From IMG/VR virus record IMGVR_UViG_2923618136_000001: a stretch of 64,000 bases of DNA; one strand, written 5' to 3'. Every line of letters begins with the position of its first letter. The stretch's first letter is position 1. Under the pieces are notes generated by a model. It ran no database searches. It saw only the letters and a program-made list of their open reading frames with translations, and was not told the origin of the DNA. This DNA is from a virus (taxonomy: Duplodnaviria; Heunggongvirae; Uroviricota; Caudoviricetes). The translations under genes were made by a program, and so were the position numbers. Below are positions 2,161 through 55,137 of this stretch, in pieces.

Positions 2161-4716
2161 TTAGTAGCCGGTGTGGGCGTCACCGAATGCGTCAGGCTGC
2201 CAATCGTCAAGCGGCGCGTCATCGAACCAATCATCGGGGACGACTTCCGCTTCAATGAACCATTTCGAGCCCACTTTATACACTGAATGAACAATGTAAG
2301 TTGTGTCGCGACGCAAGAGCAATTCGCGTTCGCCTGGATTCGCCGAAAGCCCGTCCACGTTGATCGCTTCGTGGCCGCCAGGCACACGCAGCATCAGCCT
2401 GATCGGCTGGTAGGTGAACGCGGCCCGCTGGCCCACGCTCGTGGACATGTACGCCTTGTCCCGCATGACCCGGCCGATCAGCCCGTACATCTCGTCCGGA
2501 GAGTTGATGTCCACGCCGTTGGCCTGGGTGTAGCCAGAGTCAACACCTCGATGCACGATGACCGACTCGGGAACCTTCTGCCGAGTCATCGCCTTGTCGA
2601 GATCGTCGATCCGCTTCATGGTCGCGGAGCTGCCGCCTCCCCGCCGCAGAGCGTTGTTCATCGACGTGAAGGAGTTACCGGTGTAATCCCAGATCGCCCG
2701 ACGTTCCTCGCGAACCCACTGGTCACTTGGGATCGCGGGCATTTTGTCCTGAAGCCACCGCATGCCCTCGGAGTTCGTCCGGTGGCGAGCAGCGTCCCGC
2801 ATCGAAGACGTACGGCGGTCGGAGGCGGGGAGGCGCTGCAGGAGGTCGGCCCGGCGTGCGATCAGCTTGTCCGCGATGCTCTCCGGAAGCCCGGAGTCAG
2901 CCACGATGCTGCGGATCGCGTCTGGGGTGACCTGCTCGACCCGTTTGAGGGCGGCCAACTCTTCGGCCGGGGTCATGTCAGAGAAGAGTCGGCTGGCCTG
3001 GGGCGCCGTGCCCTTATCGCGCATGGTTGTCCACTCGGGCACCGTGTCGCCGAACGCGTCACCCTTGGGATCACCCTGCGCCCGGAACAGCATCGAGCCG
3101 CCGGTGTCGATCCGGGCGACGTCGCCGCTGTCGGTCAGCAGCATGTTGTCGAACGTCAGACCAGCGGTGTCCCAGTTCGCCAGCCACGCATCGACGGCGA
3201 ACCCTTCCCGAGCTGGGCCCCGTAGCTTCTCGGGAGTCGTCTGAACGCCGTCGATGATGCGGCTCGCAGTCTGCACGCCGTCCGGAAGGCCCGGCGCTCC
3301 GCGACCACGGTGGATCTCCGGAACGCGAATGCCTGCTGCGGCGTAGAGGCGCGTGGACGCGATCTCGTTGGCGGCATGCTGTTCGGACTTCTGGGTTTTG
3401 ACGTAGTAGCGGTTGCCGTTCTCGTCCTCGAACAGGCCGCCCGGGTTGCTGCCGCCCTGGCCGCCGACTTGGCGGAGTTTGCTGAAGTCGCCGGCCTCGA
3501 CGCCCGTGAGCGCAGGTGTCGACGCAGGCGCAGGTGTCGGCGTCGGCGTCGGCGTCGGCGGAGCAGGCTTCGGCTTCGGCTTCGGAGGCACCAACGACGG
3601 ATGAAGATCCGGCGAAGTCGTCTCATCAGGACGAACCCGCTCACGAGCCGACTGCCGCAGCAGTCCCGTCTTGTCCAGGTGCTCACGCATCTGCGCCTGA
3701 TAAGCCTTGACGTGCTGGTTCGCGGCCTTCTTCTCCGAGCTGCCCTCCGGGGCCGCCGCCGCACGCCGCTTCCACCCACGGATCTGCCGCTCCAGGCGCC
3801 GCTGCTCCTGCGAGTCCTCGTACGTGCCCGTCGTCATCAGCTTCGGCGGCGGCTTCGTCAGACCAGGCAGATACACCGAGAAGGTGTGCTTGCAGTTCGG
3901 ATGCTGGAGCCCAGCCTCGCGAGCATCAGCAACGGTCCCCGCGACCTTCACCGTGACCGGATTGCCCGTCAGGACATTCGTCTCCTTCCGGTCCCCCGCC
4001 GTGCCGGCCTGAGACAGGATCTTGCCCTCCCACGGCTTGCACACCGGGCACCGGTACGGAGCCCGCGAAACAATCACCAGGTCGCGGCCGTTCTCCCGAA
4101 GCGTCGACAGATGCCCCTCGTTCGCCGCCCGCGCCATCGCCGTCCGGGCCGCCATCTCCGCGTACGCCGAGATAGACCAGGTGCGGTTCTTCGAGTCAAC
4201 GAACCCGCTGATGCCCTTCGCGGCGAACTTCTGCAGCGCCGCGGTCGTCGCCTGCAACCGCGTGACCGCGCCGGTCAACGCCAACGGCGTCGTCTCCGCA
4301 ATCACCTGCCGGTAGATGTCGTTGACCATCCGCAAAGCGCCCGTAGTCAGAGGCGGCAGCAGGCCCAGCGACTCCTTCAGAAGCTGCACCAGGCCCTGCC
4401 CGGGGGTGAGAGCACCCTCCGAGCCCAACTGGTCCAGTTCCTCCGCCGCTCGCTGCAGGCCGTCTTCCCATGCCTGGGTGACGCCCTTCTTGAGGAGTTC
4501 AGACGCGAGCGTTTCCAGATCCTTGAGGACCTTCTCCGCTTGGGCGCTGAGCTCCTTGATCGCAGCGAGTCGGTCAGCGGCGTACTGCGGGCTGGTGCCT
4601 TTCGCTACGGCCTTACCGATGACCTCGAACAGGTGCTCCTCAGCGTCGGCGTACGTCGCGGAGATCGCCATGGCGAGCTCGATACGCTCCTCGACCGCCG
4701 CTATCGCCTCAGCCAT
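2161..4716 (-). CDS. MuF-like minor head protein fused to C-terminal ADP-ribosyltransferase toxin domain
   Basis: N-terminal SPP1 gp7/Mu F-like motifs (VSRAPYRCPVCKPWEGKIL...LQHPNCKHTF). A PT-rich linker (PKPKPKPAPPTPTPTPTPAP) follows, then a middle domain with kinase-like motifs (LANWD...DNMLL...IDTGGS). The C-terminal ART has the R-S-E triad (YTGNSF..NNALR, VHRG, YMSTSV, GERELLL). The start overlaps the portal stop. Confidence 0.75.
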   Translation of the reverse strand: MAEAIAAVEERIELAMAISATYADAEEHLFEVIGKAVAKGTSPQYAADRLAAIKELSAQAEKVLKDLETLASELLKKGVTQAWEDGLQRAAEELDQLGSEGALTPGQGLVQLLKESLGLLPPLTTGALRMVNDIYRQVIAETTPLALTGAVTRLQATTAALQKFAAKGISGFVDSKNRTWSISAYAEMAARTAMARAANEGHLSTLRENGRDLVIVSRAPYRCPVCKPWEGKILSQAGTAGDRKETNVLTGNPVTVKVAGTVADAREAGLQHPNCKHTFSVYLPGLTKPPPKLMTTGTYEDSQEQRRLERQIRGWKRRAAAAPEGSSEKKAANQHVKAYQAQMREHLDKTGLLRQSARERVRPDETTSPDLHPSLVPPKPKPKPAPPTPTPTPTPAPASTPALTGVEAGDFSKLRQVGGQGGSNPGGLFEDENGNRYYVKTQKSEQHAANEIASTRLYAAAGIRVPEIHRGRGAPGLPDGVQTASRIIDGVQTTPEKLRGPAREGFAVDAWLANWDTAGLTFDNMLLTDSGDVARIDTGGSMLFRAQGDPKGDAFGDTVPEWTTMRDKGTAPQASRLFSDMTPAEELAALKRVEQVTPDAIRSIVADSGLPESIADKLIARRADLLQRLPASDRRTSSMRDAARHRTNSEGMRWLQDKMPAIPSDQWVREERRAIWDYTGNSFTSMNNALRRGGGSSATMKRIDDLDKAMTRQKVPESVIVHRGVDSGYTQANGVDINSPDEMYGLIGRVMRDKAYMSTSVGQRAAFTYQPIRLMLRVPGGHEAINVDGLSANPGERELLLRRDTTYIVHSVYKVGSKWFIEAEVVPDDWFDDAPLDDWQPDAFGDAHTGY

Positions 4717-6284
4717 CAGAGGTCGTCAGCCTCGTCGGGGATGATCTGGTCGGTGAACGTCGCCGGATCCGGCACGTTCAGGCCCAGCTCGTCACGCAGG
4801 CGCCGCTTCTCCGCGCCGACCTGCTCCTCGTCCCAATCCGGGTGAACCATCCGGATACGGGTGTCGATGGACGCGGACTGCGCGCGGTTCAACAGGTCCA
4901 CGGTGCGGGCGACGCCCTCGGTCTCCAGGAACACGCCGTCCGGCCACTCGACCTGCGGACGTTCGCCGGACACCTTCGTCTTGTAGATGTAGTGATCCAC
5001 CGACAGCAGGCACTCGCCCAGCCATGCCAGAGCGGGAGTGTTGTAGCCGATCTTCCGGCCGCGTGTGGTGAGGGACTGCCGCTCACGGGAGTGAATCTCC
5101 GTCGCGGTGGCTTCGACACCTTCGCCGGCCTCGCCGAACGACTGCACCGAGTAGCCAGCGCCACGGACGATCGCCGCGACGAGGGTCTTGGCGGTCTTCC
5201 AGTGCTCCTCGACGCGGATCTCGAACTGCGACAGAGTGATCATGTTGCCGCTGCCGTTCGCGGGCGGCAGCATGCCGATACCGGAGTAGATCTCCCGGTC
5301 CGGGTCCCAGTACGAGCCCCGGCCGCGGCCGGTGTTCTGCAGGTAGACCTCGGGCACGATGATCCGGCTTTTGCCGAGCCGCAGGTCACGCATCCAGCTC
5401 GTGTAGGTCTCGTCCAGGGCGTCCATCAGCGGCTCGACCCCGGCGTAGTCGCTGCGGCCCAGGTTGGTGCCGCGCAACGTCCGGTGCGGCCTCATGTTCG
5501 GCACGTAGTGAACAAGCAAGCCCTTTGGATAGCCGGAGTCGAACCCGCCGTCCGCGTCTACGATCGCGGCGAACCCCTCGGTTGCCGGGTGCTCCTCCAA
5601 CGGCACAGGGTGGCCAAGACGGCTGTCGTCACCCTGGTAAAGGCCGTGGTAGACGCGGCCTTTCTCGTGCCTTTCCAGATGCCGCCAGACGACCTTCTGG
5701 TCCTCCCCCACGACCCGCCAGAACGTCACCGCGCGAAGCCGACCCGAGTGGAACTCAGGCACCGCGCTGTCGGCGGGCAGCGAGTCGTACACCGGGTAGT
5801 CGGCCATCTCGGTGTCCCAGCCGACCCGCCAATACGACCCGCCGTACGCGGAGCACAGCTCGCCGGCCTCCAGCAGCCCGGCGTACACCGAGCCTTCGTT
5901 CATGATCTGGTCGAGGCGCTTCTGGGTTTTCTTCCCGGCCGCGCGTAGCGTCGGCGGCTCGCTGAACAGCAGGTCCGCGGACTTGGAGGCGATATCCGCC
6001 GCCAACGGAACGTGAAGCTTCGTGCTGCGACTCTGCCCGGCCGGGATCGGACTGCCCCAGAACCAGCGGGCGACGCGACCAATAGCGCCACCCGCGAACT
6101 GCAGCGGCCTATCCCAGCCCTTGAGGTCCAGGCCCAGGCCCGGCGTCACCGCACCGTTGCCGTACACCTCAGCGAGCCGGTCAGGGTCACCGGAGTACCA
6201 GGCCCCATGCTGCCCGTACAGGCGCATCTCGGCCCGCATATGCGGCGGCGGCCACTCCTGGTCGTGTGTGGGGAGCGGCATCAC
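4716..6284 (-). CDS. portal protein
   Basis: About 520 aa, located between the terminase region and the MuF gene. Composition and layout are typical of SPP1 gp6-like portals. A GAGAGGTGG RBS precedes the start. Confidence 0.7.
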   Translation of the reverse strand: MMPLPTHDQEWPPPHMRAEMRLYGQHGAWYSGDPDRLAEVYGNGAVTPGLGLDLKGWDRPLQFAGGAIGRVARWFWGSPIPAGQSRSTKLHVPLAADIASKSADLLFSEPPTLRAAGKKTQKRLDQIMNEGSVYAGLLEAGELCSAYGGSYWRVGWDTEMADYPVYDSLPADSAVPEFHSGRLRAVTFWRVVGEDQKVVWRHLERHEKGRVYHGLYQGDDSRLGHPVPLEEHPATEGFAAIVDADGGFDSGYPKGLLVHYVPNMRPHRTLRGTNLGRSDYAGVEPLMDALDETYTSWMRDLRLGKSRIIVPEVYLQNTGRGRGSYWDPDREIYSGIGMLPPANGSGNMITLSQFEIRVEEHWKTAKTLVAAIVRGAGYSVQSFGEAGEGVEATATEIHSRERQSLTTRGRKIGYNTPALAWLGECLLSVDHYIYKTKVSGERPQVEWPDGVFLETEGVARTVDLLNRAQSASIDTRIRMVHPDWDEEQVGAEKRRLRDELGLNVPDPATFTDQIIPDEADDL

Positions 6285-9655: not shown

Positions 9656-10943
9656 TCAGAAGTTCGAGACGGCCTCCATCAGCGGCATCCATGCCGCCTG
9701 CGTGGTGTGCAGGATGTACCGGCCGGCGTCGAGGCTGTGGTCATCGAGCTTGACCGGAGCGTCGTCGCCCTTCTCGGCTTTCCGGTCGTCCCAGGAGTAG
9801 GAGCCGATTTCACCGAGCCAGCCCGCGCAGGAGCGGTGCACCCGCAGTTGGTCAGCGGCGATCAAGTTGGACACGGTGCGGATGCCGTCGAGCACGGAGT
9901 TGTCGCCGAGCTGCGGCAGCATCCCGTCGTGATGCAATTGGGTCACGAAGCTCGCCGCGCTGGGGTCAACAATGATCCAGTCCGGCCGGACGCCCCGGGT
10001 GCCGGGGCCGTAGGTGTCGGGGACGTTGTCCAGCCACTCGCTGACCTTCTTGGAGTACTCGGCGTCGGTGAGCTGCCTGCGCTCCAGGCGGGAGTCCCAC
10101 CGCCACTCCGACACCAGATAGACCCTGCGCTGCCCCTCCCTGTCCGGGGTGGACACTCCAGCGAGGATCGCTGAGAACGGGTTGACGGTGCCGTAGTCGA
10201 TCCCGACGCCGAGCCACCGTTCCATGAGCGGAATCGAGTCCACGATGTGCCGCTCCGGGTCCCACATGTCGAAGATCGCGCCTTCGGCCATGCACCACTC
10301 GCCGAGGACGTATCGGCGGTACCACAGGCCCGTGTACTCGCTTTTCAGATTGCTGACGTACACCGGGTCGAGCGCGGGGTTGTCGTCGAGGATGAAGTGC
10401 CACCACTTCAGGTCCAGCTCATGCGACCTGAGGAGGAACCTCTTCCTCAGCCAGTGGTTCGGCGCGTCCGGGTTCGTCGTCGCGAAGATCTTGCTGCCGG
10501 TGACGGAGCAGCGGGCGAGGAGCTGGTCCCAGAACGATTCAGGGATCAGCGTCGCCTCGTCAACGTACGCGCCCGCGCAGGTCAGGCCACGCAGGCGGGA
10601 CTCGGCGCGCACGTCGTTTGCGCTGATGATCTCCACCCGGCGGCCGAGGATGTTGGCCGTCGGCGCGCCGCGCGTAAAGAAGATCCTTTTAGCGATCGGT
10701 CCCGTCAGCGACGGGTCCATCAGCGGCTCGAAAACGTTTCTCGCGATGGTGTCCGCGGTCTTACCGACGATGACCAGGTGGCCGCCGCGCGGGGCCTGCG
10801 CTACGTACATCAGCCATCTGAGCAGGGACGCGATGGTCTTTCCGGATCGGACGCTGCCGGTCCAGATGTTGATGCGGGCCGTGGATTCAGCGATGCTGCG
10901 CTCCTGCGCAGGCGACAGCGTGACGAGCGCGAGTTTGCTCACT
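9656..10943 (-). CDS. terminase large subunit
   Basis: ATPase motifs: Walker A GSVRSGKT, Walker B VDEATL, motif III ATTNP. C-terminal RNase H-like nuclease motifs (GIDYG, DHSLDAGRY). GTG start at 10943 overlaps the small-subunit stop (GTGA). Confidence 0.85.
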
Positions 10944-11418
10944 CGCCGTCCTCGCTGGCCTCGATGGCATCGACGATCTCCACCGTTGGCAACCCGGCCG
11001 GGGTGTGCCGGGCCTGCATCTGCGCGAACAGCGCCCCGAGCAGGCTGACGGCGTCGGAGCTCTCCGACCCGTTGCGGTTGATCAAGTCGAGGCCCAGCAG
11101 ACTGCAACGGCGCGTGATCAGCTTCTCGGCCTGCTCGACGGCCTTGACGTCGCCCTGCAGAGCCTTGGACCAGATACCGGCCATGAGCCGGTCCAGCCGG
11201 TCGATCTCCATCTTCAGGAGTTCTTCGGATGCGATCTGTTCGGCCTTGGCCGCCTTCTGCATCGCGCGAGTGATGTCCTTGACGGCTGCGGCCGAGGAGG
11301 CATAACCGAGGGATTCCGCGATGACCGTGGGGCTGACGCCCGCGATGCGCATCTGGACGGCTTTGGCTCTACGCTCAGCGACGACGGTGGCCGAGGCCCG
11401 GCGGCGGCTGGAGACCAT
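10939..11418 (-). CDS. terminase small subunit (HTH, sigma-70 region 4-like)
   Basis: ATG at 11418 (MVSSRRRASATVVAERRAKAVQMRIAGVSPTVIAESLGY...). The HTH N-terminus and direct coupling to the large terminase are typical of actinophage TerS. Confidence 0.6.
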   Translation of the reverse strand: MVSSRRRASATVVAERRAKAVQMRIAGVSPTVIAESLGYASSAAAVKDITRAMQKAAKAEQIASEELLKMEIDRLDRLMAGIWSKALQGDVKAVEQAEKLITRRCSLLGLDLINRNGSESSDAVSLLGALFAQMQARHTPAGLPTVEIVDAIEASEDGE

Positions 11419-11457
11419 GAGGGGACCCCCGTTTCTAGATCGGCAGTTGGAGGGCGT

Positions 11458-11700
11458 ATGCAGACAGAGATGACGCAAGCAGTTCCGCTTGCGGAAGTGG
11501 CCTACGAGATCGAGCACGAGCTGACCGACGTCGACGAGCTCGGCTGGATCGCCGTGGTGGCGCGCACCGGCCGATCCTGGTTCCGCTGCTCGTGCGGGTT
11601 CCGCGTCGAGGACGAGTTCGGCGGGCCGATGCCCACGAACGCCGTGATCGAGCAGGCCGACGACCACCTGATGACGGACCACCCGGAGGTGACGCGATGA
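11458..11700 (+). CDS. hypothetical protein
   Basis: ATG at 11458 with GGAGGG RBS. 80 aa. A plus-strand gene diverging from terminase small. Confidence 0.4.
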   Translation: MQTEMTQAVPLAEVAYEIEHELTDVDELGWIAVVARTGRSWFRCSCGFRVEDEFGGPMPTNAVIEQADDHLMTDHPEVTR

Positions 11701-11966
11701 CCTACGACATCGAGCCGTACCTGATCGACGTCGACGGCCTGGAGAAGCACCGTCCGACCCCGTCCTGGCCCATCCGGATCGACTGGGACATCTACTACGG
11801 ATGCGAGAAGCCCGACTGTGAGCGGGCCGTCCGTAAGGGCGTCCAGTACTGCTGCACCCCGTGCGCCGTGGCCGGGGAAGGCAAGTACGAGATCGAGGCC
11901 CACATGGCGAGCTGCGACGAGAAGTGGGCCTACCGGAGGCCGCATGTCGAGGCGAACACCTGGTGA
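11697..11966 (+). CDS. hypothetical Cys-rich protein
   Basis: ATGA overlap with the upstream gene. Sequence MTYDIEPYLIDVDG...CEKPDCERAVRKGVQYCCTPCA shows a zinc-binding-like pattern. Confidence 0.4.
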   Translation: MTYDIEPYLIDVDGLEKHRPTPSWPIRIDWDIYYGCEKPDCERAVRKGVQYCCTPCAVAGEGKYEIEAHMASCDEKWAYRRPHVEANTW

Positions 11967-12229
11967 GAGACCTCGCTGACTTCTACGACGTGGGCCCGAA
12001 GGTCATCCAGCTACTCGGCGGCCCGAACGACGGCGAGCGCGTCAATATCGGCTACTGCAGGTGGCCCGACACCTGGCGGATGCCGAGGAAACCCAGCCCG
12101 TCCATCAGGCTGTACTCGCCCGAAGACGAACCGAACCCTGTGGCCCCCACCGGCCACCCGGCCTACCGGCACACGGGCTCGACCAACGACCGGGGCGAGC
12201 GGATCTACCAGTACGTCGGTGACCTCTGA
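11963..12229 (+). CDS. hypothetical protein
   Basis: GTGA-coupled GTG start. Third-codon-position GC is very high (~90%), which supports coding in this frame even though it overlaps the 3' tail of the antisense RusA ORF. Confidence 0.35.
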   Translation: MRDLADFYDVGPKVIQLLGGPNDGERVNIGYCRWPDTWRMPRKPSPSIRLYSPEDEPNPVAPTGHPAYRHTGSTNDRGERIYQYVGDL

Positions 12230-12661
12230 GCCGTACCAGAGGTGCAGGGCAAGCTGGCCGCGCTTCACGACCGGGCCGAGCCGCATGTCCGGGCCGACCA
12301 GGCGGGTGTGGTCGTCGTCGTCGAGCACGCCGGCGTCGACCAGCCCGTCCACGGCGGCCTTCGCGGATGGATACCAGTTGCCCGGGTCGCGGCGGCGCCG
12401 GTCGACGGGCCGCACCTCTCCGACGACGTACACCCGGTCGAAGTGGGGTACGCCGCGCGCCTTCGCCGCGGCGTGGCCAGCGCGGCGCAGCAGCTTCGTG
12501 AGCCGGGCCTTGACCATCGGGTGAAGCCGCTGATTGGAGTTCAGCAACTCCATCCCGATCGGCAGCTCCACTGTCCAGTCCGGGGGCGGGCGCTCGTCGA
12601 ACCACACGGCTGTCTCCCCTCTGGTGCGAGACAATGGCCGCATGCGCCCGGTTACGATCAT
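12011..12661 (-). CDS. rusA: RusA-like Holliday junction resolvase (with unusual C-terminal extension)
   Basis: Aligns with E. coli RusA: LNSNQRLHPMVKA...RRRRDPGNWYPSAKAAVDGLVDAGVLDDDDHTRL matches PPSNNRYY...[29 protein letters not shown]. The reading frame continues about 70 aa past the RusA homology before the first stop, at 12011. Confidence 0.6.
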   Translation of the reverse strand: MIVTGRMRPLSRTRGETAVWFDERPPPDWTVELPIGMELLNSNQRLHPMVKARLTKLLRRAGHAAAKARGVPHFDRVYVVGEVRPVDRRRRDPGNWYPSAKAAVDGLVDAGVLDDDDHTRLVGPDMRLGPVVKRGQLALHLWYGSEVTDVLVDPLAPVVGRARVPVGRVAGGGHRVRFVFGRVQPDGRAGFPRHPPGVGPPAVADIDALAVVRAAE

Positions 12662-12875
12662 CGCCACCCGCCACGGCGGCCGGTACGAAGGCGGCCTGTG
12701 GGCCGCGTTCCCGCGAGAGCCGTGGGACATCCCGCAGGACGCCTACGGCGGCGACCGCATCGCCTACGACTGGTGGAGCTCCAACACGAGCCCGGTCGGA
12801 GTCGGGGACACACCCGACGAGGCGCTCGCCGACCTGGAACGCAAGCTCACTGAGCAGCCGCGAACGCCCCAATGA
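12642..12875 (+). CDS. hypothetical protein
   Basis: Starts MRPVTIIATRHGGRYEGGLWAAFPREPWDIPQDAYGGDRIAYDWW.... A plus-strand ORF diverging from rusA. The sequence is protein-like. Confidence 0.35.
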   Translation: MRPVTIIATRHGGRYEGGLWAAFPREPWDIPQDAYGGDRIAYDWWSSNTSPVGVGDTPDEALADLERKLTEQPRTPQ

Positions 12876-13581
12876 CCGCCCAGGAATGCCAGCGGAACAG
12901 CACCTCCGGCGCGTGCCAGCCCGCCATGGTGATCGCCTGCATCGTCGCGGCCTGCGGGTAAGGCCGAAGCACACCACGCAGCGCGCGGGCCTTCGCGCGG
13001 ATCGCCGAGTCGGTGATCCCGTGCTCGGCCTTGTAGTCGTGCGCCACGTCGGTGCCGATCTCAGCCCACCGGGAGTCAACCGGCCGGATCTTCTCCGCGA
13101 CGATCAGCGCGCCCGTCTCGTTCGAGTGCGCGCAGGCCAGGCGCAGCGCGTCCAGCCGGTCCTTCCAGGAGAGGAACTGCAGCGTGAACAGGGCGAGCGT
13201 CAGGTCCGCGTTCGCGTGCGCGAGCGGCGCTTCCTGGATGCGGGCCGCGCTGAGCGTGATGTCGTGCTCGCCGAGGTTCCGCAGCTCGATCGCGGCTTTG
13301 TCGAGCATCGCGGGCTGCTCGTCGTACAGCGCGAACCGGATACCGCGGCCCGGGTGCCGCTTGATGATCCGCTGGGCCGTGATGCCGGTCGACGCCCCGA
13401 GGTCCGCGACCAGGCCGCCGGCCGGGACGAGCCAGTCAGTGGTCTCGGCGACCAGGTCCTGAATCACGTCGTAGTGCGGCACGGACGCGCGCACGTGGTC
13501 GTCGAACACCTCGACCACGTTGCTGGTGAACTCCCACCCGCCAGCGTTGAACTGATGGGCGATGTCGCTGTCTTCGGTCAT
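12847..13581 (-). CDS. CmoA-like carboxy-S-adenosylmethionine (Cx-SAM) synthase homolog
   Basis: Shows the class I SAM-binding fold plus CmoA-specific blocks: WEFTSNVVEVFDDHVRASVPHYD matches E. coli CmoA [22 protein letters not shown]. Further matches are VADLGASTG, QPAML, LFTLQFL, ALIVAEKI and HDYKAEHG. An ATGA overlap links it to the upstream amidotransferase gene. Confidence 0.6.
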   Translation of the reverse strand: MTEDSDIAHQFNAGGWEFTSNVVEVFDDHVRASVPHYDVIQDLVAETTDWLVPAGGLVADLGASTGITAQRIIKRHPGRGIRFALYDEQPAMLDKAAIELRNLGEHDITLSAARIQEAPLAHANADLTLALFTLQFLSWKDRLDALRLACAHSNETGALIVAEKIRPVDSRWAEIGTDVAHDYKAEHGITDSAIRAKARALRGVLRPYPQAATMQAITMAGWHAPEVLFRWHSWAVIGAFAAAQ

Positions 13582-14990
13582 GGTTCGCTCCGGACGACGC
13601 GCCGGTACTCGGCCCGGTAGAACCGGCCCGGGTCGTGCAGCACTTGGGTGATCGCGGTCTTCAAGCCGAGTCCGTCCTGGAACGCGACCTTCGGGCGGCG
13701 GACCACCGAGTCGGGCAGCAGCCCGGCGTAGGCGTGCTGCAGGACGGCTTTCGGGTGGGCCTTGCCGTCCGCGACCGCGTGTCTGGGCAGGCTCAGCGCG
13801 AGGTCGACAAGGTCGGGGTCGCAGAACGGCAGGCGCCCTTCCACGCTCGACGCCATGAAGGTCTTGTTGACGCGGGGGAAGTTCTTCCGCGCCTGCGTGG
13901 CCATCAGGTCACGCCGGTAGACGTGCCAGTCGGTCGTCTGCAGGGCGTGGTACGCGAAGCCGTAGGACGCCCACAGCTCGTCGGACCCCTCACCGGAGTA
14001 GGTGACCTTGAAGCCGTCGCCGCGCATCGCGTCGGCCAGGCGCAAGCACGCCCACCCGATCTCTACCTGCGCCTTGTACGGCATTTCGATCACGGACACC
14101 ACCCGGGCCAGGTCCGATGCGGTGGGCACCGGGATGTCGACTTCCACCAGCTCGATGCCGAGCTGCTCGGCGGTCTCGCGCGCGCACCGCAGATCCCTGG
14201 ATTTCGGGTCAAGGCGGGCGGTGTACGCGACCAGGCCCGGCCGGTGCTGGACCAGCTCGTAGGTGATCGCGGCCGAGTCGATCCCGCCGGACAGCAGCGA
14301 ACACACGGGCACGTCCGAGATCAGGCGCCGCCGTACGGCCCGCGCCAGGGACGATTTCAGCGCGGCACTTGCCTTCGCGAGGGTCGACGCCGCCGGCGCG
14401 CACCCCTGCTTGTGGTAGCGCGTCCACGCGATGCCCTTACGGCTGATCGCCGCCCAGCACCCCGCGGGGACGTCGGCGACGCTGTTCTCCGTCACCGGCC
14501 GACCCATCGCGGTGAACGCTTTCAGCTCGGACGCCACCGCGACCGGCTGCGCCAGGTGCAGGTGAAACGGGATCTCCCCGTGCCGGTCACGCGCGACGTG
14601 AAGCACGCCCGGCCGCCGCTCGTCGGCCCACGCGACGGCGAACATGCCGTTGACCATGGGGAGCGCCGTGTCCGGGCCGAGGACGTTCAGCGCGGCCGCG
14701 AGGACCTCCGTGTCGCCGGTCGTCTTCCACTCCCGGCCCGGGTCGGCCCGCTCGACCGCCAGCCGCAGGTCAGCAGAGTTATATATCTCGCCGTTGTACG
14801 CGATCGTCACCGGGCCGTCGCGGAACGGCTGGTCGGATCGGCCGCCGGGGTCCTGAATCGCGAGCCGCGTGTGCGCGAGCGTCACGCCCGCCACGGTGAC
14901 GACTGCCGCCGCGTCCGGCCCACGGTGGGAGAGCCGGGCGGCGGCCAGCGCGAGGTTCGCTTTCCCGAGGATCGCCGCTACTCCGCACAT
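13578..14990 (-). CDS. asparagine synthetase B-like glutamine amidotransferase (Ntn Cys nucleophile + PP-loop)
   Basis: ATG at 14990 with GGAGA RBS gives the N-terminus MCGVAAILG (class II GATase catalytic Cys2). A central SGGIDS PP-loop ATP-pyrophosphatase motif (VPVCSLLSGGIDSAAI) is present. Confidence 0.7.
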   Translation of the reverse strand: MCGVAAILGKANLALAAARLSHRGPDAAAVVTVAGVTLAHTRLAIQDPGGRSDQPFRDGPVTIAYNGEIYNSADLRLAVERADPGREWKTTGDTEVLAAALNVLGPDTALPMVNGMFAVAWADERRPGVLHVARDRHGEIPFHLHLAQPVAVASELKAFTAMGRPVTENSVADVPAGCWAAISRKGIAWTRYHKQGCAPAASTLAKASAALKSSLARAVRRRLISDVPVCSLLSGGIDSAAITYELVQHRPGLVAYTARLDPKSRDLRCARETAEQLGIELVEVDIPVPTASDLARVVSVIEMPYKAQVEIGWACLRLADAMRGDGFKVTYSGEGSDELWASYGFAYHALQTTDWHVYRRDLMATQARKNFPRVNKTFMASSVEGRLPFCDPDLVDLALSLPRHAVADGKAHPKAVLQHAYAGLLPDSVVRRPKVAFQDGLGLKTAITQVLHDPGRFYRAEYRRVVRSEP

Positions 14991-16048
14991 GGTGTCTCCG
15001 CGTCCCGCAGCGGAATGAGGATCTTGTCTCGGATTGTCCCGGCGATCCTGGCCATCATCGGCGGCGGCACCGCGCGCCCGATCCGCTCCCAGCGGCGCGC
15101 GTAGTTCCCGGTGAGCACGAAGTCGTCGGGGAACCCGCCGATCCTGCGCAGTTCCGGGATCGTCAGGTAACGCGGGTGGGTCGGGTGCGTGAGCGCGGCC
15201 GTGCCCTTCGTTCCGGCTCTGGCCACGATGACCGGGGACGCCTGGTCGAAGCTGAGCCGCTTCAAGTTCAGCCTCGCCGGGTGGCCTTCGCCCGGCCTGA
15301 GCTGCCGCCACAGCCGCTCGATCGAGTAGCCCCGGATGGTGATCGGGTAGCCCGTCTCCGGGTCGTTGTCCAGGTCGTTGAACGCCCCCGGCAGGTCCCC
15401 GACCGCATCCCGGACGGTGTAGTAATGCGGCTCCGGAGCAGGGTGGACAGGCTCCACGCCCAGGTCGTTACGGACCCCGACGAAGATGATCCGCTGCCGT
15501 CTCTGCGGGACGCCGAGCCACTGCGCTTCGAGCAGCCGGGCCGTCACCCGGTAACCAGCCTCGCGCAGCGTCTTCAGGATCCGCTTGAAGTAGCCCTTCG
15601 CCGTCCCCTGGACCAGGCCCGCGACGTTCTCCGCGACGAACGTGCGCGGCTGCAGGTCCCGCAGCAGGCGAGCGAACTCGAAGAACAGGTCGTCCGTGCG
15701 CTGCTGGGTGTCGGAGTACTGCTTGACCGTGCCCCACCCGGCCTCGCGCTTACCCGACGTGGAGAACGACGCGCACGGCGGCGACCCATCCACCAGGTCG
15801 ATCTCGCCGACGCCCAGGCCCGTCGCGGCCAGGATCTCAGCCGCAGTCACCTTCCGGATGTCGCGGGTGTCGAGGACCGTGTACGGCGCCGCGTTCGCCT
15901 TGTACGTCTCGGCGGCCGCGGGGATGAACTCCGACGCCCACAGCACCCGGAATCCGGCCATTCGGTAGCCGAGCGATGAGCCGCCGCACCCGGAGAACGT
16001 CGAGATCGCGTTGAAGCCGTTCCATGGGGTGGCGGCGATCTCCGCCAT
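14978..16048 (-). CDS. DNA (cytosine-5)-methyltransferase family protein
   Basis: C5-MTase motifs: I FSGCGG, IV GSPPCASFS (catalytic Cys), VI ENV, VIII QRRQR, plus a C-terminal GRAVPPPM. The start is uncertain: ATG 16048 (MAEIA), ATG 16093 or GTG 16105. Confidence 0.8.
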   Translation of the reverse strand: MAEIAATPWNGFNAISTFSGCGGSSLGYRMAGFRVLWASEFIPAAAETYKANAAPYTVLDTRDIRKVTAAEILAATGLGVGEIDLVDGSPPCASFSTSGKREAGWGTVKQYSDTQQRTDDLFFEFARLLRDLQPRTFVAENVAGLVQGTAKGYFKRILKTLREAGYRVTARLLEAQWLGVPQRRQRIIFVGVRNDLGVEPVHPAPEPHYYTVRDAVGDLPGAFNDLDNDPETGYPITIRGYSIERLWRQLRPGEGHPARLNLKRLSFDQASPVIVARAGTKGTAALTHPTHPRYLTIPELRRIGGFPDDFVLTGNYARRWERIGRAVPPPMMARIAGTIRDKILIPLRDAETPCAE

Positions 16049-16071
16049 CGACGGGATCCGGTACAGCGGCT

Positions 16072-16692
16072 TCACTTGGGCTTCCCGCTCCATTCGTAGC
16101 TGCACGAGGGACAGCGGAAGTCCACGTCGATCGCCTCGTCGAACTCGCGGAACCCCGAAGGTGCCTGCGCCTGCGGCATGGCCTCGTCGTCGTCATCGGC
16201 GTCGTGGGCCGGGCCCATGTCTCCGGCCAGCGCCGCTCCCAGCGCCGCGTCCAGGTCCGCCAGGTCGTCGGCCGTGTAGCCGGTGACGACGAGCAGTCCC
16301 GCGTCGGCCTCCTGGATGGTGAGCAGGGACTCAGCCAGCATGGCCTCGTCCCAGCCGCCTTTCTCGCTGGTCCGGTTGTTCGCGATGAGGTACGCCTCGG
16401 CGTCCGCGTCGGACCGCGAGGACCAGCCACGTACGATCGGCACCAGCCACGTGCCGTCCTCGGCCAGGCGCACCCCCTCGGGAGGGGTTGAGCCGCTGTC
16501 GACCATCGCCGTCAGGACCTCTTTGCGGCCATGGCCGACGACCAGCCGGCCGGTGCGTTCATCGATCTCTCCGGCGACGACGCAGCCGAACGTCTCGATC
16601 GAGGCGCGGATCGCGGCCAAGTCGTGGTCCTTGGCGTTCCGCGCCGCTGCCGGGAGGTCCAGGAGCGGCATGTACTCGATGTGGCGCTGCAT
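16072..16692 (-). CDS. ParB-like nuclease domain protein
   Basis: ATG at 16692 (MQRHIEYMPLLDLPAAARNAKDHDLAAIRASIETFGCVVAGEI...GRLVVGHGR). The ParB/Srx N-terminal fold motif is present. Sits directly upstream of the C5-MTase gene. Confidence 0.55.
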   Translation of the reverse strand: MQRHIEYMPLLDLPAAARNAKDHDLAAIRASIETFGCVVAGEIDERTGRLVVGHGRKEVLTAMVDSGSTPPEGVRLAEDGTWLVPIVRGWSSRSDADAEAYLIANNRTSEKGGWDEAMLAESLLTIQEADAGLLVVTGYTADDLADLDAALGAALAGDMGPAHDADDDDEAMPQAQAPSGFREFDEAIDVDFRCPSCSYEWSGKPK

Positions 16693-17066
16693 CACACCTC
16701 CGCCCGGGGGCTGTCGGTCGTGGACATGGCGCGGACGATCGCATAGAACATGTGATCTTTGATCCGCTGCTCGTCGGGCAGGTCCTCGTACGGCACGAGG
16801 CAGGGGTGCGTCTTGGTGTTGGCGTTCTTGTACCGGCCGTACGTCCACCCATCGGCGCGCTTCGTGTCGCACCACGTCTCATGGAGCTCCTGCGGTGTGG
16901 CACCGGCCAGAGCGGCTTCGACGCCCTGGATGACCGGGGAGGTCTGCCAGTCGGGGGCCTGGTCCCAGTGCGGTGACGGCTTCTCACCTGCCGCGATCTG
17001 CAGGACGCGGTTCGCCTCGTGGCACACGCGGGCGATCGTCTCTGGGTATGCCTTCATGGCGCTCAT
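16692..17066 (-). CDS. RyR-domain protein
   Basis: Sequence HETWCDTKRADGWTYGRYKNANTKTHPCLVPYEDLPDEQRIKD matches the RyR (PF02026-like) repeat common in actinophages. Confidence 0.5.
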   Translation of the reverse strand: MSAMKAYPETIARVCHEANRVLQIAAGEKPSPHWDQAPDWQTSPVIQGVEAALAGATPQELHETWCDTKRADGWTYGRYKNANTKTHPCLVPYEDLPDEQRIKDHMFYAIVRAMSTTDSPRAEV

Positions 17067-18118
17067 CGGTCGCTGCCTTCCTCGGCCGGGCTGTAGTCGT
17101 ACCGGACGCGCTGCTCGGCCACCGAGGCGCAGAGCTGGATGCAGGCGTCTGCGATCCACAGGCCGTTCGTCACGGCGCGGTCGGTTACCTTGACGGAGCC
17201 CCCGGTGATGCCGCCCTTGCCGGGCTGCACGGGGACCGGCCGGTCGGACTCCCATTCCACGGACCACGACATGACCGGGCGCCGGGACTTCGGGCGGCCG
17301 AATCGCTGCCGCTTCAGCTGTAGCCGCATCTGGTACTCGCCGCCGCCGCCGGGCATCCGCACCCGCGCGAACTCGGGGCCGGCGGCGTCCTCGTAGGAGT
17401 AGCGCTTCGGCCCGAACAGCCGCTCCACCAGGTCGAGGTTCAGGGAGCCGTCCTGCCAGCGGAGTGTGTCCCGCGACCAGGAGTTCCGTTTGGCCCAGAT
17501 CTTCCAGGAGAGCCGCCAGCCGTCGAGGCTCAGGCCGATGACCCGCGACTCATACCCGGTCGGGATCAGGCGGCGCTGCAACCAGGTGCCGAACCGCTCG
17601 GTGTGCAGGTAGATGGCGCCCAGCGGCATGATCCGCAGGTGCGCGGCCAGCGTCTGCTCGCTGCCCGCGTTGCCGACCTTCACCTCGACGGAGAACACGC
17701 CGAACGTTTTGCCAACGAGCAGCTCGCCGCCAAGCGTGCCAGTCGGGCGCTTCGGCCACGCTCCCGGCAGGCTGTGGCCGGTGCGGAGGCGGTTCATGGC
17801 CTTCTGCACCAGCTCGGTGGTGAGGACGTGCCGCTCCCCCTGGTCGAACTCGCCGTCGTAACGTTGGCCGACAGCCCAGGCGTCCGGGTCAAGGTTGCCC
17901 TGCGGGTCGGGCCGGACTCCGCACCGGTCGCATGCCACCCAGCGGCGCGCGTCGAGGCCTCGCGCGTGGGGGCCGTACCCGTCGACGACCGGCCGGTGGC
18001 CACGGGGTCGGCACCACAGCATGAGCCGGGGCACGTCTTGGAGCCAGAAGCCGCGGTGGGCCAGGACGCCGGGTTTGCGGCCGTCCTGCTTGGCGTGGTC
18101 GGAGGTGTGCCAGTACAT
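17063..18118 (-). CDS. hypothetical protein
   Basis: ATG at 18118 with GGAG RBS. 351 aa. No motif recognised. Confidence 0.45.
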   Translation of the reverse strand: MYWHTSDHAKQDGRKPGVLAHRGFWLQDVPRLMLWCRPRGHRPVVDGYGPHARGLDARRWVACDRCGVRPDPQGNLDPDAWAVGQRYDGEFDQGERHVLTTELVQKAMNRLRTGHSLPGAWPKRPTGTLGGELLVGKTFGVFSVEVKVGNAGSEQTLAAHLRIMPLGAIYLHTERFGTWLQRRLIPTGYESRVIGLSLDGWRLSWKIWAKRNSWSRDTLRWQDGSLNLDLVERLFGPKRYSYEDAAGPEFARVRMPGGGGEYQMRLQLKRQRFGRPKSRRPVMSWSVEWESDRPVPVQPGKGGITGGSVKVTDRAVTNGLWIADACIQLCASVAEQRVRYDYSPAEEGSDR

Positions 18119-18255
18119 GAGGGAGCTCCGAGGGGTGGAGGGTGGTGACCCAGCCCGGCGCGTTGTCCGCGCTACCCCCATAACGCAGTGACGCGCCGGG
18201 CCGGGGGCATGAGGAAGGCCCCGGACCGTGATGGTTCCGGGGCCTTCTGAGTTTT

Positions 18256-18276
18256 GAGCGTCTGAGAGCGTCTCTA
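18256..18276. promoter_or_regulatory. direct repeat GAGCGTCTGAGAGCGTCTC in the promoter region of the 18118 operon
   Basis: An (A)GAGCGTCT(C/G) unit occurs twice in tandem. Related CGTCTCAGAG repeats recur at 25802, 48909 and 60133-60230, always in intergenic regions upstream of minus-strand operons. Confidence 0.4.
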
Positions 18277-18460
18277 AGCAAGATCAACGCTGGGGGATCG
18301 GGAGAGCACGCGGAGGGTTGAGAACGTCCGTCACGCGCGGGCTCAGAGACGCATACGTGCAGTCATGCAAGCACTTTGGCATGCGTGTTCTACTCTGGCG
18401 GACAGCATATGCACTGTTGTCAAGTCACCGCAAGCAGGCGTCCATCACTGGGCGTGTTGC

Positions 18461-19063
18461 TTACCGTTCGGCTTGGCCGTTAAGCCACCACTTGCCGCCG
18501 GGAGTCTTCGGGGGGAAGGCGACGTTGACCACGAAATCGTCGTCCACGATGAGATAGCCAAGCGCGTGCAGCTCATGGAGAGCCATCGCCGCTCCCTCGT
18601 CCGTCATCGGCATGCTGTCCTCGGGCATCTCGTCCGGGCGGAGCCGTCGCAGTTCCTCCTGGGTGTCAGGACTGGACACGCCAGCGGCCATCTCGATCAG
18701 CGGCACATCCTGGTAGGAGCCAGGCTCGCCCGGAACAGCCATGTGGATGACACCCTCCTGAATCTGCTGGTCAAGGAACACTGCAGCCTTGGGCACCACG
18801 CCGTGATAGCGCGGGCCGAGCCGAACGAACGCATCGGCGAGGTCCTTGGCAGTGTCGTCGAGCCGGTCGTCGAAACGGGCCGAGTGCACGATCGCGTCCT
18901 TGGCGTAGTCGCCGACGTGAAACCACTCCTCGTACAGCTTGAACGGCGGCTGCAGGCGCTGGAGCGGCGACAAGCTCTGCAGCTTCCTCGCCTGGCGCTG
19001 AGCGCGCTGCCGTTCGAGCTGCTTGTCGCGAGCGGACCGGTTCTTCTTCGGCTTGCTGGCCAC
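18461..19063 (-). CDS. hypothetical protein
   Basis: 200-aa ORF with a basic N-terminus (KPKKNRSARDKQLERQRAQRQARK). Downstream of the tyrosine recombinase. Confidence 0.45.
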   Translation of the reverse strand: MASKPKKNRSARDKQLERQRAQRQARKLQSLSPLQRLQPPFKLYEEWFHVGDYAKDAIVHSARFDDRLDDTAKDLADAFVRLGPRYHGVVPKAAVFLDQQIQEGVIHMAVPGEPGSYQDVPLIEMAAGVSSPDTQEELRRLRPDEMPEDSMPMTDEGAAMALHELHALGYLIVDDDFVVNVAFPPKTPGGKWWLNGQAER

Positions 19064-19125
19064 CTCAAGCTCCTTGCATATCGGGGAAAGTCATGGTCTC
19101 AGGTTCCGTCTGTTCGGGAGGGGAC

Positions 19126-20115
19126 TTACATTCCGATCCCCGCCGTGGCGTTGTCCGCCCACTGGTCGACGATCCGCAGGTACTCGTGCAGCGCAGTCGA
19201 GTTCGGCGCCCATCCGCCCTGCTCGGCGATCGTCCGGTAGTCGTGCTTCGCCTCCCGCGCCGCCGTGGCGAGGCCGGCGCGCATGCTGTGCCCGGTGATG
19301 CCCACCAAGCCCACCGCCTCGGCCGCGCCTGCGATGGCGATCCCGATGCCCTGCGCGCTGATCGGACCCATCATCTTGTGCCGGTTGAAGCGCTGGAACG
19401 CGGGCCCGTCTGGGTCGAGGTCCGAGGCCGCCGCCCACGCCTGCCAGGCGCGCTGCGCGCACGTCCACTCGTTCTCGCCCTTCTTGATCGCAGGTGATCG
19501 GGCGCCGGTCTTGCCGTACCGGGCGAACACCTGCAGGCCCTTCTCCGTCACGACCACGTCGCGCGTACGGAGGTTCGCCAGCTCCGACCGGCGCGCCGCC
19601 ATACCGAAGCCGACCGTGAGGATCGCCCGGTCGCGCAGGCCCTTCAGGGTGTCCGGCAGCGCCTTCGACATCATGCGGAGCTGCATCATCGTCAGCGCGG
19701 GAGCCTTACCGCGGCCGCGTTCCTCGCCCGCCTCGGCCAGCATCCGCACGAGGGCGTCGATCGCCTTCTTCGCCTTCTTCGGGCCGTTCGGGTGTACGTC
19801 AACCCCGCGCTCACGCAGGCACACCGCCGCGCCGTACATGTTCCGCTGGATGGTCGACGGAGCCGCGCCCTCCTTGCCCCTCCAGATCACGAACCCGAAG
19901 AACGCGCCCGGTGTGCCGGCCTCCAGCGGGATGCCCACGTCGGCGATGTACCGCTCCCAGACCCTCCAGTCGCTCGCGTAGCTGCGCAGCGTGTTCTCGC
20001 TGCGGGGCTCGAACTCCTCCGCCAGCTCGTCGAGCTCGACGAGCCGGGCCCAGCGGGCGGCGTCCTCGGCGGACACCAGCTCGCCACCGCCTTGGAGCTC
20101 CAGCTCCCCGGTCAC
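19126..20115 (-). CDS. tyrosine recombinase (integrase/XerCD-like)
   Basis: Catalytic motifs: R (ELANLRTRDV), HxxR (GHSMRAGLATAA) and the nucleophile Y (ALHEYLR). GTG start at 20115 is GTGA-coupled to the upstream excisionase-like gene. Confidence 0.7.
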   Translation of the reverse strand: MTGELELQGGGELVSAEDAARWARLVELDELAEEFEPRSENTLRSYASDWRVWERYIADVGIPLEAGTPGAFFGFVIWRGKEGAAPSTIQRNMYGAAVCLRERGVDVHPNGPKKAKKAIDALVRMLAEAGEERGRGKAPALTMMQLRMMSKALPDTLKGLRDRAILTVGFGMAARRSELANLRTRDVVVTEKGLQVFARYGKTGARSPAIKKGENEWTCAQRAWQAWAAASDLDPDGPAFQRFNRHKMMGPISAQGIGIAIAGAAEAVGLVGITGHSMRAGLATAAREAKHDYRTIAEQGGWAPNSTALHEYLRIVDQWADNATAGIGM

Positions 20116-20438
20116 TCGGCACCTTCCCGCAGCTTCCACCCCTGATCATCGCGGTCCCACACGAACAGCCCCGCCTCGATCAAGCGGTAGATCTCACTCT
20201 TGGCCAAGCCGTACCGCTCGGTCGCGATGTCGGTATCCCACCGGCCTTTCCAGATGGCAGGCCGGTCCGCCTTCCGGCCCTCCTCGCAGCCGATGCCCTC
20301 CAAGCAGTCGTAGCGCTGAGTCCCGCAGTACGGGCATCGCGCCACATCGCAGCGCAGATCATGGCCCTGGCCAGGCGCGACAGCGCAGTCACCGCACAAG
20401 GAGCTGATGTCGTCTGGCACCTTCGCCTCACCGGTCAC
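20112..20438 (-). CDS. excisionase / AlpA-family HTH DNA-binding protein
   Basis: GTG at 20438 with GAGGAGG RBS. Contains the HTH IATERYGLAKSEIYRLIEAGLF plus CxxC pairs. Immediately upstream of and overlapping the tyrosine recombinase. Confidence 0.5.
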   Translation of the reverse strand: MTGEAKVPDDISSLCGDCAVAPGQGHDLRCDVARCPYCGTQRYDCLEGIGCEEGRKADRPAIWKGRWDTDIATERYGLAKSEIYRLIEAGLFVWDRDDQGWKLREGAE

Positions 20439-55073: not shown

Positions 55074-55137
55074 CCTCTTTCTGGGTTGGTCGGGCAGGGG
55101 CGGCGGTGGGTGGCCGCCGCCCCCTCGGTGGTGCAGG

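Follow-up and report, generated by a model that had tools for sequence, protein, structure and literature searches.

A CmoA-CmoX-CmoY gene cassette with a glutamine-type ligase in a Streptosporangium prophage, a candidate route to an amide-bearing cytosine in phage DNA

Four genes lie packed on the minus strand at positions 12847-16692 of a 64,000-nucleotide stretch of tailed-virus DNA (IMG/VR record IMGVR_UViG_2923618136_000001); the whole stretch is called the window here. They encode a ParB-like protein, a homologue of DNA cytosine C5-methyltransferases (MTases), a homologue of asparagine synthetase B (AsnB) and a homologue of CmoA, the enzyme that makes carboxy-S-adenosylmethionine (Cx-SAM). 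The cassette belongs to the CmoA-CmoX-CmoY system known from Synechococcus phage S-B43, and it represents the glutamine-type subclass of that system in a new host genus and in a temperate context. The element that carries it is integrated as a prophage in the actinomycete Streptosporangium lutulentum and is not a free phage genome. We think it likely that the genes are a late-operon DNA hypermodification cassette of this temperate actinophage, with an amide as the end product. A similar pathway had been proposed for the four genes from the raw sequence (the original prediction), and its claims are taken up below where they apply.

The CmoA-CmoX-CmoY system was described by Yang et al. (Nat Commun, Dec 2025; PMC12783734). 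The S-B43 CmoA (SpCmoA) makes Cx-SAM out of S-adenosylmethionine (SAM) and prephenate, and CmoX (SpCmoX), a C5-MTase homologue, puts the carboxymethyl group on C5 of cytosine at GC sites in double-stranded DNA. CmoY (SpCmoY) is an asparagine-synthetase-like ligase that attaches glycine at the expense of ATP, and its substrate is 5-carboxymethylcytosine (5cxmC) already within DNA; the glycyl amide of 5cxmC is present in S-B43 virion DNA. The 1.9 Å crystal structure of SpCmoX (8YF3) has Arg350 touching the cofactor carboxylate at the position where M.HhaI has Asn304. The wild-type enzyme uses only Cx-SAM, and the R350N mutant is inactive with both SAM and Cx-SAM. In the accompanying survey CmoX was recognized by an SPPC motif plus Arg350, and no candidates were found for N6-adenine or N4-cytosine carboxymethyltransferases. 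ParB-domain neighbors were noted in many contigs, in line with the original prediction, which had called the ParB-like protein a common partner of such enzymes. The survey also found several ligase clusters with distinct active sites. The second largest, represented by A0A7T0Q3R0, has a glutamine-hydrolysing domain, and ammonia was suggested as its substrate. Thus natural 5cxmC and the cassette of CmoA, C5-MTase and asparagine-synthetase-like ligase, its frequent ParB partner included, are already published (PMC12783734), and the statement in the original prediction that no natural DNA system of this composition had been characterized has been overtaken. In the literature up to mid-2026 we found neither a characterization of a glutamine-type CmoY nor a report of 5-carbamoylmethylcytosine in DNA.

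The window MTase (14978-16075, minus strand; 365 amino acids from GTG 16075) is a predicted CmoX-type DNA cytosine C5-carboxymethyltransferase. It matches PF00145 (E 5e-56), and its best match among solved structures is SpCmoX (8YF3, E 8.9e-64), followed by M.HaeIII (9e-29). GSPPC occupies residues 97-101, so that SPPC is 98-101. Arg334, numbered from GTG 16075, aligns with SpCmoX Arg350 in the phmmer alignment to 8YF3 and also in a MAFFT alignment, and M.HaeIII has Asn in this column. The original prediction had singled out the residue that matches M.MpeI N374 and M.HhaI N304 and had foreseen an enlarged pocket or a basic residue there. The sequence G-R-x-V-P-P is present in all of the CmoA-adjacent MTases of Streptomyces phage TurkishDelight, PaBG, S-B43 and the metagenomic phages. 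Among 84 related loci, the motif X residue beside glutamine-type CmoY genes is Arg in 80 of 80 instances and Asn in none. In the window, a CmoA homologue lies two genes downstream within the same overlapping operon. By its sequence, then, the window MTase carries both of the published marks of CmoX, SPPC and an Arg at the 350 position.

A precedent for the change in motif X is the engineered carboxymethyltransferase M.MpeI N374K, a C5-MTase that accepts Cx-SAM owing to a substitution at the motif-X Asn (Wang and Kohli 2021, cited in PMC12783734). Like the window CmoX, it has a basic residue in place of Asn. In the engineered enzyme this residue is Lys, whereas the natural window enzyme has Arg and is encoded together with a Cx-SAM synthase and an amide ligase of its own.

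The AsnB-like gene (13578-14990, minus strand) encodes a 470-amino-acid protein that we assign as a glutamine-type CmoY, i.e., an AsnB-family amidotransferase and putative ATP-dependent amide ligase. It has GATase_6/7 and Asn_synthase domains (E 6e-44) and begins with MCGV. E. coli AsnB (1CT9) is matched with an E value of 1.8e-38 by the window protein alone and of 2e-68 by the family profile. The two proteins share a two-domain architecture, the N-terminal Cys, SGGxDS, SGEGSDE and a residue equivalent to Lys449, but the window CmoY is about 80 residues shorter at its C-terminus and its counterpart of the TTIRAST segment is replaced. It is 64-65% identical, over 99% of its length, to A0A7T0Q3R0, which is TurkishDelight gp124. 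Cluster membership in the published survey was set by a sequence similarity network threshold of about 30% identity, and the window CmoY therefore belongs to the glutamine-type cluster.

Conservation within this family extends to both active sites. The residues C2, HRGPD, R42, N66-G67-E68 and D93 are invariant in 22 CmoY relatives that are 53-79% identical, and so are the PP-loop SGGIDS (S234-S239), GEGSDE and K434, the equivalent of AsnB Lys449. The glutaminase residues (Cys2, Arg42, Asn66-Gly67-Glu68 and Asp93) are unchanged from the actinophages to the cyanophages, at 40-79% identity. In addition, the AsnB segment YDVTTIRAST has become YKAQVEIGW in the window CmoY, and the new segment is invariant in the family and identical in a cyanophage homologue. 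In AsnB, the replaced segment is associated with the binding of aspartate and beta-aspartyl-AMP, and mutagenesis has implicated it in the formation of beta-aspartyl-AMP. Because the glutaminase active site is fully conserved, an amide end product is proposed, and we infer 5-carbamoylmethylcytosine to be the final product. The more specific proposal, that 5-carbamoylmethylcytosine (5-(2-amino-2-oxoethyl)-deoxycytidine, +57 Da) is made by an AsnB-family amidotransferase that passes ammonia from glutamine to an adenylated carboxylate on duplex DNA, seems to us slightly better than an even chance. To our knowledge, such an enzyme would be without precedent among class-II glutamine amidotransferases in having DNA as its substrate.

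The same pathway could have another last step, in which CmoY attaches a different amine, such as an amino acid or a polyamine, or in which the amide is processed further; the final base would in that case be something other than 5-carbamoylmethylcytosine. The sole characterized CmoY uses glycine, the published ligase clusters have distinct active sites (PMC12783734), and the acceptor loop YKAQVEIGW is specific to the glutamine-type family, all of which would fit a different amine. However, the complete class-II glutaminase apparatus stays invariant at 40-79% identity, which one would not expect of a vestigial domain, whereas the glycine ligase SpCmoY is entirely without a glutaminase domain. 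Furthermore, the cassette contains no further modification enzyme. We therefore regard another amine or a further processing step as unlikely, though worth keeping in mind, and continue to favor the primary amide.

The genes also occur together in other viral loci. A profile scan of IMG/VR yielded 80 loci, 34 of which are flank-complete, that is, they have at least 2.5 kb on both sides. CmoX and CmoA are encoded on the same strand as the glutamine-type CmoY in 33 of the 34 flank-complete loci, and at least one of the two partners is present at 79 of the 80. With the genes abbreviated by their last letters, the order is AYX in 46 loci, XYA in 20 (the order in the window), YXA in five and YAX in one. 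The original prediction had asked for the same four-gene synteny in another actinophage, and TurkishDelight gp122-gp125 has it. This order, together with the linkage in 33 of 34 loci, means that the arrangement is not due to chance.

The linkage bears on the possibility that the genes are unrelated neighbors, namely a 5-methylcytosine MTase of the ordinary kind, a generic methyltransferase of small molecules or tRNA and an asparagine synthetase that serves metabolism. Public records annotate all three proteins in this way, and both the CmoA-like and the AsnB-like proteins fall under the NCBIfam equivalog cutoffs; for the window CmoY the scores are 250.4 versus 267.1 bits for TIGR01536 and 229 versus 499 bits for PRK09431. 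However, the trio is kept in four gene orders in actinophages, cyanophages and other viral contigs, all 80 MTases have Arg in place of the motif-X Asn, the AsnB segment YDVTTIRAST is replaced and the window genes overlap by 4 to 13 bases. These facts make a chance assembly of ordinary enzymes highly improbable, and we retain the assignment to the CmoA-CmoX-CmoY system.

The AYX loci are cyanophage contigs, and they are informative about the ligase. Their CmoA and CmoX proteins share about 85-95% identity with the S-B43 ones, but they encode a full-length glutamine-type CmoY where S-B43 has its 271-amino-acid glycine ligase. The sequences thus show one ligase type exchanged for the other in cassettes that are nearly identical in other respects. 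We take this as an argument for both types acting on 5cxmC in DNA with different amine donors, and the amides borne on the shared carboxymethyl group probably differ between closely related cyanophages. In cyanophage contigs L033-L084 (e.g., L036:5306-8510), the glutamine-type CmoY is about 41-42% identical to that of the window.

One could also imagine that amidation takes place on the cofactor, i.e., that CmoY turns Cx-SAM into carbamoylmethyl-SAM and that the MTase then transfers the amide group directly. AsnB-family enzymes usually act on small-molecule carboxylates, which is an indirect point in favor of this idea. The Arg that in SpCmoX binds the Cx-SAM carboxylate is retained by the window MTase, although an amide donor would have no use for it, and SpCmoY acts on 5cxmC already in DNA, so we give amidation of the cofactor very little credence. 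For amidation on DNA, the preferred reading, the evidence consists of the conserved glutaminase site, the ligase swap in the cyanophages and the absence of another candidate function, which together suggest the step. The original prediction agrees with the characterized phage system in its first two reactions, Cx-SAM synthesis and C5 carboxymethylation, and its amide product stands as an extrapolation from the glutaminase site.

The CmoA-like gene (12847-13581, minus strand) encodes a 244-amino-acid protein that is a predicted CmoA-type Cx-SAM synthase. It matches TIGR00740 over its full length (E 2.6e-27) and the phage family phrog_4752 (E 4e-50), and its best matches in the PDB are E. coli CmoA 4GEK (E 3e-17, aligned end to end) and 1IM8. 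The cofactor contacts listed for E. coli CmoA include Tyr39, Asp62, Gly64, Ser66, Asp89 and Phe137 (Byrne et al. 2013, PMC3663124), and the window protein has their equivalents in Y37, D60, G62, S64, an Asp in the position of Asp89, and F136. Two E. coli residues, Asp117 and Asn132, are changed in the window CmoA as well as in the active SpCmoA, and both phage proteins have the change of Asn132 to Leu. In E. coli CmoA, Arg199 is singled out as the salt-bridge partner of the Cx-SAM carboxylate (PMC3663124).

Several points weigh against the reading given here. The CmoA-like protein scores well under the curated cutoffs, with 96 versus 193.3 bits for TIGR00740 and 64.4 versus 285 bits for PRK15451, both of which are models built on bacterial CmoA of the tRNA pathway. 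There is no Arg in the exact column of E. coli Arg199, where the window CmoA has Ala198, and the suggestion that Arg202 or Arg199 of the window protein substitutes for it draws on covariation and on the active SpCmoA. The target-recognition region of the window CmoX is poorly conserved with SpCmoX, and so its recognition sequence is not inferable from that of SpCmoX. The one exception among the 34 flank-complete loci, L022, has a CmoY homologue without CmoX and CmoA. Finally, Yang et al. obtained no soluble enzyme from the A0A7T0Q3R0 cluster (PMC12783734), and the window cassette and every glutamine-type CmoY are known from genes alone.

The missing Arg199 led us to consider rejecting the CmoA assignment, and this was dropped because the active SpCmoA is also without Arg199 and because basic residues at 199 and 203 are anti-correlated. 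The window CmoA has an Arg at the +1 (R199) and +4 (R202) positions of the column, in the sequence K-A-R-A-L-R (window 12973-12993). SpCmoA carries Glu in column 199, Lys in 200 and Arg in 203, which is the reverse of Arg199/Glu203 in E. coli. Thus the E. coli and PaBG proteins have the pattern R...E, whereas S-B43, the window and most of the phage-type sequences have x...R. We aligned 137 diverse CmoA members out of 1.8 billion representatives, a set that is biased to the phage type since the window protein was the query. Eight members have basic residues at both 199 and 203, 28 at 199 only, 77 at 203 only and 24 at neither, and the anti-correlation is strong (Fisher p 1.7e-8). A basic residue at 199, 200 or 203 is present in 127 of the 137, and the pattern of the window is the commonest. 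Because 199 and 203 stand in an i and i+4 relationship and are anti-correlated, the carboxylate-binding Arg may have moved by one helical turn, as in a relocated or swapped salt-bridge pair. Of the Cx-SAM site that the original prediction had wanted confirmed, the six contact residues are conserved, and the Arg199 column departs from E. coli.

A metagenomic phage contig (ERR12510902_8458, locus L006) has a gene directly upstream of CmoX-CmoY-CmoA that encodes a 76-amino-acid type-II chorismate mutase (L006:4635-4865; PF01817, E 1.2e-11). This enzyme would supply prephenate, the co-substrate of CmoA, and would be independent support for the use of prephenate by these cassettes. A chorismate mutase is not mentioned by Yang et al. 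(PMC12783734). A tblastn search with the single L006 query, which is a weak test, gave no credible match in the window (best E 3.8), and the same single-query search found none in the other fetched loci.

The compact layout of the cassette also agrees with joint expression. As the original prediction had stated, the four genes are tightly packed, and the overlaps read from the sequence are 4, 13 and 4 bases. The stop of the ParB-like gene and the start of the MTase gene (GTG 16075) have GTGA in common, the MTase stop (14978) and the AsnB-like ATG (14990) overlap by 13 bases in ATGTGCGGAGTAG, and the AsnB-like stop and CmoA-like start (13581/13578) share the 4 bases ATGA. The original prediction had begun the MTase at 16048; GTG 16075 is favored because the N-terminal segment KPLYRIPSMAEI, which is conserved in homologues, reaches upstream of ATG 16048 and because the public gene call is 16075 too. 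All of the motifs that the original prediction quoted are present, i.e., FSGCGG, (S)PPC, ENV, QRRQR, MCGV, SGGIDS, LQFL and HDYK. The cassette open reading frames (ORFs) have a third-position GC of 0.90-0.92, which is typical of coding sequence in DNA of 67% GC. CmoX and CmoY overlap by 13 bases in the window (14978-14990) and by just as many in L006, L007 and L008 (6001-6013), which are distant metagenomic phages with CmoY proteins 52-58% identical to that of the window. The equal length suggests a conserved translational coupling of the two genes.

From these observations the following sequence of events can be proposed. CmoA would convert SAM and prephenate into Cx-SAM, an activity that has been shown for the S-B43 orthologue. 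By homology to SpCmoX, the window CmoX would flip a cytosine out of double-stranded phage DNA, attack C6 with Cys101 and, while Arg334 holds the carboxylate of Cx-SAM, pass the carboxymethyl group on to C5. CmoY would then adenylate the new carboxylate at its PP-loop site, and the Cys2 glutaminase would free ammonia that is channelled to the adenylate to give the primary amide, 5-carbamoylmethylcytosine. The position of the cassette upstream of RusA and terminase and its tight coupling suggest post-replicative modification, probably shortly before packaging, so that the injected genome would be shielded from host restriction. Such a protective role is plausible because 5cxmC DNA resists HhaI (PMC12783734). 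Since the cassette resides in a temperate actinophage, the chromosome of the lysogenic host must be spared this chemistry, and the ParB-like zinc-ribbon protein may load the enzymes on phage DNA or confine them to it.

Among the known systems close to the window cassette is that of TurkishDelight. TurkishDelight gp122-gp125 have the domain architectures of the four window proteins as well as their order, and the identities are 58% for CmoX, 64% for CmoY and 63% for CmoA (gp125). The ParB-like protein of TurkishDelight has a zinc ribbon as in the window. However, TurkishDelight has been isolated as a phage, and its cassette is located at the right end of the genome, whereas the window is an integrated prophage in a different genus, and there is no nucleotide-level similarity between the two.

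In S-B43, too, one cassette unites the three enzyme families. Its CmoX is 38% identical to that of the window, with SPPC and the carboxylate-binding Arg in both, and the two CmoA proteins have the same departures from E. coli (Leu at Asn132, no Arg199 and Arg at 203). The ligases of the two systems differ. The S-B43 CmoY has 271 amino acids, lacks a glutaminase domain and ligates glycine, whereas the window CmoY has 470 amino acids and a complete glutaminase domain; the identity between them is only about 27% over 156 residues. The gene order is CmoA-CmoY-CmoX in S-B43 and ParB-CmoX-CmoY-CmoA in the window, the CmoX target in S-B43 is GC, and, as distinct from S-B43, the window phage has an actinomycete host and is temperate. 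Another related system is the E. coli pathway for cmo5U in tRNA (CmoA and CmoB; 4GEK, 4IWN), which shares the CmoA fold, the cofactor contacts and Cx-SAM as the donor. However, the window has no CmoB, its predicted acceptor is C5 of DNA cytosine by way of a Dcm-type MTase, and the Arg199 column of E. coli CmoA is not kept.

Two homologous loci have a different composition. L022 (5989-11297 of IMGVR_UViG_3300005323_000039) has a homologue of glutamine-type CmoY that is 50% identical, and its neighbors encode a radical-SAM enzyme, a sliding-clamp-like protein and a thymidylate-synthase-like protein. L022 may represent a different route of pyrimidine modification, and since it is without CmoX and CmoA, the glutamine-type ligase family is not tied exclusively to the Cx-SAM pathway. 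The other is Gordonia phage Evaa (gp1-gp5; L002:1-3952), in which a CmoA-like protein that is 52% identical to that of the window adjoins terminase. In Evaa we found neither an AsnB-like gene (threshold E<=1e-10) nor a C5-MTase of the CmoX type (threshold E<=1e-30). What it does encode is a ParB-like protein together with a ParB-fused protein of 511 amino acids (phrog_5475, annotated as a methyltransferase), and the latter may be a different carboxymethyl acceptor enzyme. Another variation is the presence of two tandem CmoX paralogues per cassette in IMG/VR contigs L047-L052, each with GSPPC and G-R-M-V-P-P. These may be two carboxymethyltransferases of different sequence specificity.

The first gene of the window cassette (16072-16692, minus strand) encodes a 206-amino-acid protein with an N-terminal ParB-like domain and a C-terminal zinc ribbon (CPSCSYEWSGKPK). 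It had no Pfam match, even at E<=1, and a single-sequence search of the PDB gave only noise. However, it matches two ParB-like PHROGs, phrog_620 (E 2e-23) and phrog_723 (E 2.5e-16), and a profile of eight orthologues finds ParB/Spo0J/Noc N-terminal domains in the PDB (E 1e-5 to 1e-4). GHGRKE stands in place of the canonical GERRxR box in the window protein. The orthologues upstream of CmoX, which include TurkishDelight gp122 and those of PaBG and three metagenomic phages, are alike in the ParB-type domain at the N-terminus and in the zinc ribbon at the C-terminus, CPxCxYxWSGKP. We speculate that the protein is a conserved DNA-binding accessory with a role in DNA loading or targeting.

The next gene upstream (16692-17057, minus strand) encodes a 121-amino-acid RyR-domain protein (PF02026, E 7e-13) and is translationally coupled to the ParB-like gene, whose start it overlaps by one base (TGATG). 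Among the 84 related loci, it accompanies the cassette only in the window's own contig and in its closest relative, L009. Thus the RyR-domain gene is probably a neighbor and not a conserved part of the cassette.

The assignment of the host comes from public sequences. The CmoA-like protein has an identical sequence encoded on NCBI contig JBHUCL010000110.1 (assembly GCA_042677625.1), and the AsnB-like protein is WP_307557381.1 of S. lutulentum, which is present on a 10.3 Mb contig as well. Almost all of the genes in the window are on the minus strand. They include a large serine recombinase at the right edge (62384-64000, minus strand), a tyrosine-recombinase-family protein in mid-element (19126-20139, minus strand), a Gp3-like recombination directionality factor (RDF) domain within a 603-amino-acid protein (35554-37365), RusA resolvase (12011-12730), the large terminase (9656-11107) and a UvrD-type helicase. 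The cassette lies directly upstream of RusA and the packaging genes, and capsid genes are located downstream. The gene content, with the serine recombinase, RDF-like Gp3, RusA, terminase and capsid genes, identifies the element as an integrated prophage of more than 64 kb.

Some other genes in the window deserve mention. A second methyltransferase, unrelated to CmoX, has DUF3560 and an MTS/N6_Mtase-like C-terminal domain (53450-55171, minus strand), and through it the prophage may carry a second DNA modification. A minor-capsid-type protein (PF06152) with an ADP-ribosyltransferase toxin domain (PF03496) is encoded at 2161-4725 (minus strand), according to the precomputed Pfam annotation of the source contig. 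On the plus strand, a small convergent ORF (12642-12875), which the public gene call gives as 77 amino acids, runs 29 bases into the 3' end of the oppositely oriented CmoA gene, and its third-position GC, computed on a longer ORF, is about 0.87. A search of 11000-19500 for promoters and terminators turned up nothing promoter-like and a single terminator-like site, which is below the shuffled expectation, and the tRNA search found none; neither outcome helps to delimit the transcription unit. Megablast searches of 50,697 phage records with the cassette and with window 1-25000 gave no match; relatives of the cassette are detectable only at the protein level.

In conclusion, a pathway that was deduced from raw sequence matches a system that was published independently in late 2025. 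The published work drew attention to the glutamine-type branch, and its attempt at purifying one member failed. Besides TurkishDelight, additional material is offered by the window locus and by related loci in culturable strains of Streptosporangium, Nonomuraea, Microbispora and Streptomyces. Such material could reveal 5-carbamoylmethylcytosine in nature, the sequence motifs of CmoX and the manner in which a temperate phage restricts the modification to its own DNA. If true, a carboxamide-bearing cytosine would be an addition both to the natural chemistries of DNA camouflage and to the enzymatic tools for labelling DNA.

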